Shown piece by piece: positions 39,259-55,672 of a stretch of 64,000 nt of DNA. Source of the DNA: a virus. Where the stretch lies: IMG/VR virus record IMGVR_UViG_3300037851_000431, positions 41,737 through 105,736 of that record; one strand, given 5' to 3'. A program made the translations under genes and the position numbers. The notes under the pieces were generated by a model. That model was not told where the DNA came from and ran no database searches. It saw nothing but the letters and a program-made list of their open reading frames with translations. Each line of letters starts with the position of its first letter. Position 1 is the first letter of the stretch.

Positions 39259-39796
39259 ACTAACGGGAAGCCGTATCGCATTTTACGGGAAAATGTGTTC
39301 TGGTAAAACTTATAATGCACGATACCTAGTTAATGGGGGGAGTTTTGTTAAGATAGCACTAGCAGATAAATTGAAAGCCATTGCATATGACCTTTATGGA
39401 TTAGAGGGGAAGGACGGGCATTCTAGGGCGCTCCTACAGGGTTTGGGAGATGACCTACGCAAATGGGATGAGGATGTATTTATTAAAACCGTTCTTCGAA
39501 AAGTTCAAGCCATTGAAAATCAGAGATATCCACCGCGAATTGTAGTTGATGATGTACGATTTGTTAATGAGGCTAGTGCATTCTTAAATGCAGGATTTAC
39601 GTTGGTTCATGTAATTTGCGAGGAGCATGAAAGGCTTCGAAGAATACAGGAGTTGTATCCTAACACAAACATGGAATCATTGAATCATACTTCGGAACAA
39701 CAGGTAGATAAAATCACAGAGATGTTTGGATGGAGTTACTGGATAACTAGTAATGAGCCATCTGATGTTGTTCAACTTGAGAAATTATTTATATGA
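39209..39796 (+). CDS. Deoxynucleoside monophosphate kinase
   Basis: GKMCSGKT Walker A, ADKLK, RALLQ.LG, VDDVRFVNE, HTSE. Confidence 0.88.
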   Translation: MRGRPEVPHDIVHLKPRLTGSRIAFYGKMCSGKTYNARYLVNGGSFVKIALADKLKAIAYDLYGLEGKDGHSRALLQGLGDDLRKWDEDVFIKTVLRKVQAIENQRYPPRIVVDDVRFVNEASAFLNAGFTLVHVICEEHERLRRIQELYPNTNMESLNHTSEQQVDKITEMFGWSYWITSNEPSDVVQLEKLFI

Positions 39797-40332
39797 GACT
39801 AGTATTAATATGTAGGGAACAAATCATAAAGACATACGCATCAAGGTACCTAGAAAGTCGGCATAAGTTTAAAACGATGCGTATGTCTGACGGTATTACC
39901 CGGTTACACAAGATTTTTTATTGGCAGGATGCCAAATATAAAAGAGTAAGTTGGCAGGAGAGGGTTCGTTGGTACGATGCCCTCTATAAGTTGGATAATA
40001 ACTTCTTTGTTAACTGGATAGAATATAAAATTTCCAAGTCTGTTAAAGAAGACATTGTTATCTCTGATGTAAGGTACATGAATGAGTTAGTTAAACTCAA
40101 AGATGACCTTGGGTTTAAAGTTGTACGCATTGCTGTACCAAGAGCAGGAAGGATGATCAAACCGATGGTTGCTCTTGGTAAGGAACATAGTGCTGGTACT
40201 ATACTATTGCGCGAATTATTTGGTAACTTTGATGATATCGGAGTAGATTACTCGATCTATTCTGAAAGTTATCAGGATATGAAAAAAGGTTTTGATGAAT
40301 TGGTTGACAAGGGACGTAACAATCTTCTATAA
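39793..40332 (+). CDS. dNMP-kinase paralogue lacking the P-loop
   Basis: ISDVRYMNE is retained; the Walker A position reads CREQIIKT. Confidence 0.65.
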   Translation: MRLVLICREQIIKTYASRYLESRHKFKTMRMSDGITRLHKIFYWQDAKYKRVSWQERVRWYDALYKLDNNFFVNWIEYKISKSVKEDIVISDVRYMNELVKLKDDLGFKVVRIAVPRAGRMIKPMVALGKEHSAGTILLRELFGNFDDIGVDYSIYSESYQDMKKGFDELVDKGRNNLL

Positions 40333-50059: not shown

Positions 50060-50372
50060 GCCCTAAGAATAAAAAACTTTTTTATGTAGATCACTTTTGT
50101 ACTTCTTTGTTCCGTACTTTGTTGATCGAATTTCATCCGGTGGCCTGTTACTCACCGAAATTCTGGATTTTAGAACCTAAAATAAATCCAATTTCATGCT
50201 CCCATAAAGAGGAATTTTAGCCACCCATTTACAGGGATTTTGGAGCCGAAAACCTAGGATGCGTGCCCCATATAAGCTGCACGCGCGAGCAGCTATATCA
50301 CGCGCGAGGGGTTTTTTCGTACCGAATTTTGGGTTCCTTTAGAGCGTTTTCAAAAAAACCCCTTTTTGGGGC

Positions 50373-50401
50373 TTGACAGGGTGTGCCCGGTGTGCTATGC
50401 T
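50373..50401 (+). promoter_or_regulatory. Sigma70-type rightward early promoter
   Basis: TTGACA-N17-TATGCT with TG extension and an upstream A/T tract. Confidence 0.8.
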
Positions 50402-50463
50402 CTTAGCAGAGGTTAGTTGAACATATAAATCACAATCCGTATAGATGAAAGGTAAGTGAATAT

Positions 50464-52260: not shown

Positions 52261-53057
52261 GGAGCCGCGATCTTACAGTAAAGGAGGTGAAAAGCAATCT
52301 ATATTGTAATGAAATGCGGCTCCTGTCCTGAAAAGCAGTATTTCGGTAAACTTGTCGAAAAGGGCAAGGAAAATACTGCTAAGTGCCCTAACTGCGGGCA
52401 CAAACTTATCGTCGTGGCAAACGATAAGTAACTACATAATGGCGAAGGTTAGGTTGGCTAGACCTAATCTATTCGATGCCCCGAGAATTATGCCTGTGAC
52501 GACAGGCTTTGGGGATAGCCCATCGAATAGGAAGCCGAAAACTGAGCCTTAGGCTTAGGGTTTCGGGCCAGATTTATTAGGCTAGGATACGAGAAAGTAC
52601 GATCTGGTGCAAGTATCGTCGTATAAATGCCTAGCGAGTCGGTCAATGCGTAAACCGACATTATTAATAAATTATGTGTTGAGTAGAGAACAACACGAAG
52701 CAGTACTATAAGGCTCTGATCGATCCATCCTTATACCTGTGGATATGGCCTACCGGACACATAATTTAGAGTACGCTACTGGTAGAATTACTGGTCATGA
52801 ACAGAGAAGAGCCAGTCTCAATGCGTATACTGTGGATTATGAAGTGATATCCATATTAAAGTCTAAGAGTACGATAGGTTCCTTTGGCGTAGTCAATAGA
52901 TAGGGTAGCGAGCTGCAAATCGTCCTATCGAAAAGAACCTCACAATGCGTACACTGCCCGATCAATTATGTGATATCGGGCATCCGAATTATAAAGGCTT
53001 CCAGCGGGCAGTATTATATTTTATTTTAATCCAAACACTGCCCGCTAGAGTCCTTTA
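52261..53057 (+). ncRNA. Putative large structured non-coding RNA (about 800 nt), family unassigned
   Basis: More than 15 consecutive helices and two covarying copies of one module; no long ORF in a gene-dense region. Confidence 0.75.
52309..52431 (+). CDS. 40-aa Zn-ribbon peptide inside the structured RNA (not in ORF track)
   Basis: MKCGSC...KCPNCGHKL; AAGGAGGTGA upstream. Confidence 0.55.
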   Translation: MKCGSCPEKQYFGKLVEKGKENTAKCPNCGHKLIVVANDK

Positions 53058-53069
53058 TTAGAGGTTAGT

Positions 53070-53420
53070 ATGTACCGACGAATTCAACTAATTAATCACT
53101 ACGATCCTAAGAAACATGAACACGAACAAAACGACTTCATCCATGGGTTGATGGGTATTTGTAATAGTGTTGAGATTGCAGATGCGTGGACCTATAAATT
53201 GCGCGGTTCAAATCACGCTCTACCCACCAATGCACGATTTTATTTTACAGAGAAGGGTTGGAAGGAAGTTGGACGAGAAGTAATTGCCGCTTGTCAGCGA
53301 TCAGGTCAAGACTATAGAGTTATTAAAGTCAAAGAGACTGACGCGCAAGTTGTTTGGCGAGATAAGTATACTGAATATGAAGTTGCTATCCAGCCTAAAA
53401 GAAAGGTAAGTAAGAAGTAG
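53070..53420 (+). CDS. Hypothetical protein
   Basis: SD GAGGT; RFYFTEKGW. Confidence 0.6.
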   Translation: MYRRIQLINHYDPKKHEHEQNDFIHGLMGICNSVEIADAWTYKLRGSNHALPTNARFYFTEKGWKEVGREVIAACQRSGQDYRVIKVKETDAQVVWRDKYTEYEVAIQPKRKVSKK

Positions 53421-55636: not shown

Positions 55637-55643
55637 TTAAGGC

Positions 55644-55672
55644 TTGACAGGGGCTAGTTTATGTGGTAAAAT
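55644..55672 (+). promoter_or_regulatory. Sigma70-type promoter overlapping the 5' half of tRNA-His
   Basis: TTGACA-N17-TAAAAT with TG extension. Confidence 0.6.

Follow-up and report, generated by a model that had tools for sequence, protein, structure and literature searches.

A clade-restricted structured RNA motif, duplicated in tandem in the early region of a tRNA-rich siphovirus

The tandem element in the largest ORF-free gap of an uncultivated siphovirus genome is a genuine, previously undescribed structured RNA motif, restricted to one viral clade. Across its two copies and the single copies of two relatives, comparison at the sequence level shows the motif to be conserved, with pairing kept by compensating changes, on the predicted transcribed strand; its tandem duplication occurs only in the genome studied here, G000. 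The two copies, modules A and B, are best explained as paralogues of a conserved RNA element of 83-150 nt, lying on the + strand and in an early polycistronic transcript. Its helix P1 is 8 bp long and contains an A.A mismatch; the junction is asymmetric, one strand reading MU and the other NNNAAUG, and the helix P2 is of very variable size. Hairpin P3 directly abuts P1 and has UGAU at its loop end, and a single-stranded tail, CAUCCGAWU, completes the element. In this clade of tRNA-rich siphoviruses (~120 kb), the element always lies at the end of an extended non-coding stretch composed of several structured domains.

The window (the whole stretch of DNA that was analysed) is the final 64 kb of a 105,736-base IMG/VR virus record, 88% complete. 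G000 is a large siphovirus of ~120 kb, rich in tRNA genes (at least 26), that encodes TerL, a portal protein, a family-A DNA polymerase, a DnaB helicase, a 1710-aa tape-measure protein and a 3047-aa fibre rich in lectin domains. The gap (52432-53069, 638 nt) belongs to an early operon on the + strand. It was judged non-coding under other genetic codes as well, being free of ORFs under tables 11 and 4 and under TAG=Q. The features in and beside it are as follows.

52309..52431, + strand: zinc-ribbon gene (40 aa, CxxC..CxxC), immediately upstream of the gap
52436..52570, + strand: Domain 1, a multi-stem junction whose final hairpin is followed by AUUUAUUAG
52594..52659, + strand: degenerate unit M0, with AGTACGAT at 52596 and then the hairpin GTCGGT-CAATGCGTAA-ACCGAC, without the P1/P2 layout
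52669..52767, + strand: helix-closed domain, with an 11-bp long-range helix, AAAUUAUGUGU/ACACAUAAUUU, of pair probability 0.95-0.99
52700..52749, + strand: degenerate unit Mx, AGTACTATAAGG ... CCTTATACCTGTGGAT, which has CTGTGGAT in common with module A
52768..52854, + strand: module A, identified by reading of the sequence, by its isolated fold and by a covariance-model score of 81.8 bits, the last by construction
52866..52989, + strand: module B, identified on the same bases and orthologous to the single modules of the relatives G004 and G003
52991..53058, + strand: long terminator-like hairpin, followed by UUUAUUAGAGG and the ATG at 53070
53070..53420, + strand: 116-aa gene of a widespread family without known function, downstream of the gap

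Since the sole clear sigma-70 promoter (TTGACA-17-TATGCT, near 50376) lies ~2-2.4 kb upstream of the element, the gap is predicted to be transcribed as part of the operon; a promoter search inside the gap found none. This early promoter (window 50370-50404) is of a strong sigma-70 type, and its context GCTTGACAG recurs at 55640-55650, overlapping the start of tRNA-His. N4-type hairpin promoters were dismissed on the ground that the 3047-aa protein is not a virion RNA polymerase but a lectin-rich fibre.

The 40-aa zinc-ribbon protein is 67% identical to its counterpart in G004, where the gene also adjoins the region. Its Pfam matches were generic zinc ribbons only, all sub-threshold, and a Com-like identity found no Pfam support. 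The 116-aa protein belongs to an uncharacterised family with at least 56 homologues, drawn from metagenomes of soils and wetlands. No Pfam domain is present in it, and its confident AlphaFold model (pLDDT 90.6) gave no match when compared with the PDB by Foldseek. None of 80 metagenome loci with this gene family has the gap, the motif or synteny, and we therefore do not regard the 116-aa gene as linked to the motif.

The sequences of both copies and of their stems are as a sequence-only reading by a model had described them. In module A, P1 pairs AGAGTACG (52768-75) with CGTATACT (52824-31), including the A.A mismatch and one G.U; a joiner CU leads to P2 (ACTGGT, 52778-83, with GCCAGT, 52811-16), J2/1 is CUCAAUG (52817-23), and P3 pairs GTGGAT (52832-37) with ATCCAT (52849-54) under a loop ending in GUGAU. 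Module B has P1 at 52866-73 with 52948-55, a joiner AU, a branched P2 closed by AGGTTC (52876-81) with GAACCT (52935-40), J2/1 CACAAUG, P3 of GCCCGAT (52956-62) with ATCGGGC (52975-81), and the tail CAUCCGAAU at 52981-89. The blocks shared by the two modules are 85-88% identical (S5, 11/13; S3, 14/16). The P2 arms are only 1/6 and 2/6 identical, yet all six positions pair in both copies; when 25 offsets were permitted, just 3 of 20,000 shuffles gave the two copies six or more P2 pairs at a shared offset. The gap contains three instances of CAATGCGTA, where 0.29 would be expected for the entire window, and two of AGTACG..CAATGCGTA, which the shuffles never produced.

Folded in isolation, both modules recover P1, P2 and P3. 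The full ensemble is divided: in-module P1 has a probability of 0.2-0.27 versus 0.45-0.65 for the swapped pairing (A5'/B3' plus A3'/B5'), a topology made available by the identity of the two modules' P1 strands. Fold z-scores of the gap are -4 to -5, and the + strand reaches -204 kcal/mol versus -187 kcal/mol for the other strand. This advantage of 17 kcal/mol, together with G.U pairs that would be A.C on the other strand, indicates an RNA with the same orientation as the genes.

A TerL search returned 20 IMG/VR relatives, and a DNA search of their records revealed a collinear homologous region in G004 (117 kb). G003 (119,870 b, with terminal repeats, complete) and G004 have ~65% TerL identity. 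The earlier proposal of an RNA module had been staked on instances in relatives, and these two genomes carry one copy each, on the same strand as the flanking genes and in non-coding parts of the early region; the tandem layout is not a feature of the relatives. The G004 module is identical to module B in the S5 block (100%) and 86% identical in the S3-P3 block; it reads AGAGTACGAT-AGGG..CCCT-CACAATG-CGTATACT-GCTCGAT-loop-ATCGAGC-ATCCGATT, with an RBS 14 nt downstream. The early genes of G004 are syntenic: it begins with homologues of 51202, 51601, 51861 and the zinc ribbon, the phosphatase and the 402-aa gene following further on. Its non-coding stretch is ~1.1 kb long with a tRNA-like element, and the order of domains is not the same as in G000. 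The tRNA-like element (L129:1174-1262) precedes the G004 module by ~150 nt. Its acceptor stem is 7 bp long, its anticodon loop carries GUA, and it further has a long variable arm, a T arm and an encoded CCA; it was missed by ARAGORN and scores only 23 bits on the tRNA-Sec model. The G003 module, in a non-coding stretch of ~600 nt, is minimal: the same P1, a P2 of ~2 pairs, AAATG, P3 GGTAGT/ACTACC and then ATCCGAAT. An AT-rich spacer follows it, with neither a terminator-like hairpin nor an RBS close by and no called ORF of at least 40 aa on the same strand for ~340 nt. The genes downstream of the module differ among G000, G004 and G003.

With these orthologues, the covarying stems that had been proposed from two copies could be examined in four instances (modules A and B, G004 and G003), and they hold. 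Pairs were counted by a hand-set script, as MAFFT misaligned the variable P2. P3, which has 6 or 7 pairs depending on the alignment register, pairs 24/24 although its arms differ in all four instances; three of its positions show three pair types, and two others show two; among the 24 permutations of its arms only the cognate assignment reaches 24. P2 can have as few as 2 pairs or as many as 6 or more, and its inserts differ greatly. Its first pair (A-U) is invariant, and at each of pairs 2 to 4 there are two pair types; in three instances the first four pairs are complete (12/12). P1 is invariant apart from G.U versus G-C at one pair and keeps the A.A mismatch in 4/4; as it never varies, covariation lends this helix no direct support. 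The joiner MU, AAUG, CUG after P1 and the loop end UGAU are conserved too; most junction bases are invariant, the tail CAUCCGAWU is present in 3/4 instances, and the compact two-helix core holds about 40 invariant nucleotides. Compensated pairing across the instances rules out chance, and likewise a purely double-stranded DNA site.

The covariance-model search that the sequence-only reading had called for was run with a model built from the four instances, and yielded nothing more in G000, G001, G002, G005-G010 or 96 other loci; G002, a complete relative, lacks the motif by this model. A refined core pattern applied to all of IMG/VR found exactly G003 and G004. Early exact-core scans had missed these orthologues because the P2 gap range was too narrow: in IMG/VR they gave only chance matches in coding DNA, and in GTDB (185,579 species genomes) 6 matches against ~17 expected, in genes or start codons. 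The pattern scans of GTDB genomes thus found no host counterpart that the module might mimic, as had been suggested. BLASTN of the region against 50,697 phage records gave no match; the flanking small proteins as IMG/VR probes returned nothing, and DnaB one distant match. Rfam 15, applied to the whole window and the rest of the genome, called tRNAs only, with no family at the gathering threshold for the motif; on the region at E up to 10 it gave only chance microRNA-like matches on the terminator hairpin, and on the orthologous G003 and G004 loci nothing. A tRNA origin of the element was rejected, the 9-mer that it has in common with tRNA-Ile being at chance level, as were likenesses, noticed by eye, to the sarcin-ricin loop, the 16S decoding site and the hairpin ribozyme, which fall in non-conserved parts or are too short.

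Around the modules the gap holds further structure. As had been reported, the third CAATGCGTA (52644-52) forms a hairpin loop, closed by GTCGGT/ACCGAC, and AGTACG recurs a third time at 52596; the unit that contains them, M0, is a decayed relative of the modules and not part of the motif. Its G004 counterpart (88% identical over 41 nt, upstream of the zinc-ribbon gene) has the loop CAAGGTATAA, with CAAGGTATA in place of CAATGCGTA, and the notion of a third copy was dropped in favour of a degenerate unit. The terminator-like hairpin carries a partial S3 copy, its 3' arm repeating ACACTGCCCG of module B; ACACUGCCCG of module B recurs in this arm as well. The presence of M0, Mx and the partial S3 copy in one gap indicates that the region grew by repeated duplication. 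The helix-closed domain stops 1 nt short of module A, an analogous domain precedes the G004 module, and the P3 loop of module B (52964-72) is a near-copy of the 5' arm of the AAAUUAUGUGU/ACACAUAAUUU helix. In the nascent transcript to 53020, the MFE structure pairs ACUGCCCG of module B with the 5' arm of the terminator; at full length, however, the terminator fold wins over this antiterminator alternative by 16 kcal/mol. The terminator-like hairpin is absent after the G004 module. In G000, hairpin-plus-U-tract elements flank the module region on both sides. Domain 1 is 98% identical to G004 over 52436-80 (45 nt) and 92% over 52512-35. The former segment, the first hairpin of the gap, keeps this identity despite TerL identity of only ~65%, and its conservation suggests a second strongly constrained RNA element.

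Elsewhere in G000, the mRNA of gene 39793-40332 holds UGUACGCAUUG at 40121-40131, which complements the S3 block of module B perfectly over 11 nt and could be an antisense target or chance. Outside the window, G000 has a Ro60/Rsr orthologue (contig C1, L095:7345-9400; TROVE, 1.6e-40, plus vWA_Ro60), followed by three co-oriented modules, each with GGTAGTG at its start and TTCTCTCC at its end. The second gives a sub-threshold YrlA match (30.7 bits, E 6.8e-4) and the third encloses a weak tRNA; the three look like a cluster of phage Y-RNA-like genes. A 393-aa protein at L095:4339-5520 matches phrog_1211 (E 7e-106), an adenylosuccinate-synthetase-like family of the PurZ type.

As to function, we tentatively favour a cis-acting recognition module on the early transcript, either put-like or a processing signal, while giving this reading less than even weight. 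The invariant P1/junction surface would be a specific recognition site, acting in cis on the transcript, with the transcribing polymerase or an RNA-binding or processing protein as candidate readers. The element may thereby set what occurs where the structured leader meets the early genes downstream, in G000 through read-through of, or processing at, the terminator-like hairpin 52991-53058, in a manner likened to that of the HK022 put RNAs. An expression platform is not conserved, since G004 has an RBS instead of the terminator hairpin and G003 has neither.

Several other roles were weighed. A serious, though less probable, contender is that the module is one domain of a large trans-acting ornate ncRNA, or of a small stable RNA cluster, of the tRNA-island-linked ROOL/GOLLD class, and serves folding, protein docking or self-assembly and not gene control. 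Phages carry ROOL and GOLLD in the vicinity of tRNA islands (PMC12286853). The length of the gap and its fold z-scores fit such an RNA, as do separate domains conserved with G004 at 98%, 92% and 88%, the ~1.1-kb version in G004 with its tRNA-like element, the hairpin-plus-U-tract elements that bracket the module region, and a phage with at least 26 tRNA genes, a Ro60 orthologue and Y-RNA-like modules; the negative promoter search in the gap, the differing domain order in G000 and G004, and the lack of any ROOL, GOLLD or Rfam match at E up to 10 argue against it. Control of the following terminator or RBS by a ligand-binding aptamer, tandem as in glycine riboswitches, is unlikely. An invariant junction core with variable peripheral stems would suit a riboswitch, module B overlaps the alternative pairing with the terminator 5' arm, and the RBS of G004 stands 14 nt after its module, but the downstream genes are unrelated in the three phages (G003 being ORF-poor for ~340 nt), homologues of the 116-aa gene at 80 other loci lack the element, and no expression platform is conserved.

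A role as a self-cleaving ribozyme, or as a processing signal for a nuclease, is similarly improbable; the module would then divide the structured leader (in G004 with the tRNA-like element) from the downstream mRNA. Phage ribozymes adjoining tRNAs are a recurrent theme, and ~40 invariant nucleotides in a compact two-helix core, placed at the boundary between ncRNA and next gene in both G000 and G004, would be in keeping with one; however, no Rfam ribozyme family was matched, including hairpin, hammerhead, twister, pistol, hatchet and HDV-like. Least credible is that the element acts as DNA, in replication, injection stop or packaging. The untranslated repeat regions of T5 offer a precedent (bioRxiv 10.1101/866236), and the gap has two sites that match the DnaA box at 8/9, TGTGGATAT and TGTGGATTA. 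These are near chance, however (~0.5 expected); both derive from the duplicated CTGTGGAT and stand singly, not in pairs. Double-stranded recognition also leaves the changed-yet-complementary arms unexplained and runs against the strand asymmetry described above, in G.U pairs and fold energy; no T5-like genes were recognised, and the GC-skew minimum and divergent promoters lie at ~50 kb in the window.

A cis-acting recognition module remains our tentatively preferred account of the element. There is also some chance, though we hold it doubtful, that the motif founds a new compact RNA class of tRNA-rich large phages with the P1/junction as an active site or high-affinity pocket: a put-like RNA outside the lambdoids that modifies the polymerase without help from a protein, a new self-cleaving ribozyme or a new aptamer. 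To our knowledge, put RNAs are known solely from lambdoid coliphages, and the few conserved structured phage RNAs come nearly all from well-sampled phage groups. The present motif combines ~40 invariant nucleotides and covariation-supported stems with no Rfam family and an unstudied lineage, one whose Ro60 gene, Y-RNA-like modules and 26 or more tRNA genes mark a heavy investment in RNA biology. It is small enough for direct probing, cleavage and termination assays, and its natural single-copy and tandem forms provide a built-in comparison.

Among known systems, tandem riboswitches such as those for glycine resemble the element in having two similar aptamer-like domains in a row, the second overlapping a terminator alternative; they differ in that here the relatives are single-copy and there is no conserved expression platform or downstream gene, a coherent downstream gene set being absent in G000, G004 and G003. 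Y RNA and YrlA gave no match in the region (RF02553, RF00019), and the phage's own YrlA-like element lies beside the Ro60 gene elsewhere and has no sequence in common with the module. The untranslated repeat regions of T5, which include the injection stop signal and contain direct and inverted repeats and DnaA boxes, are likewise large, repeat-rich and situated in the early part of a ~120-kb siphovirus genome (10.1101/866236). Unlike them, the inverted repeats here covary as RNA stems and the phage is not recognisably T5-like; regions of the T5 iss type have DnaA-box pairs 3 nt apart in large inverted repeats, whereas the G000 gap is without pairs. The large ornate phage RNAs ROOL and GOLLD, found near tRNA islands, share with the gap the character of a long, highly structured ncRNA stretch in a genome rich in tRNA genes (PMC12286853). 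They differ from it in that cmscan at E up to 10 gave no match to RF03087 or RF01998, families with conserved pseudoknotted cores, and in that the conserved unit here is a small module, the surrounding domains being rearranged between relatives.

Comparable in layout are putL and putR, the cis-acting polymerase-modifying antiterminators of HK022 (PMC9378689), which suppress termination via the zinc-binding domain of the RNA polymerase beta' subunit. A put RNA is ~70 nt long with two adjacent, bulged stem-loops; the element is larger (83-150 nt) with a variable or branched P2; it lies ~2-2.4 kb from the recognisable promoter (~50376), whereas put sites lie 0-270 nt after an early promoter, and its copies are in tandem and not in two operons. 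The likeness drawn here is one of layout: as in put, two abutting stem-loops with internal loops are present in up to two sequence-related copies per genome, in early operons and upstream of terminators, and the differences between copies preserve pairing (PMC9378689).
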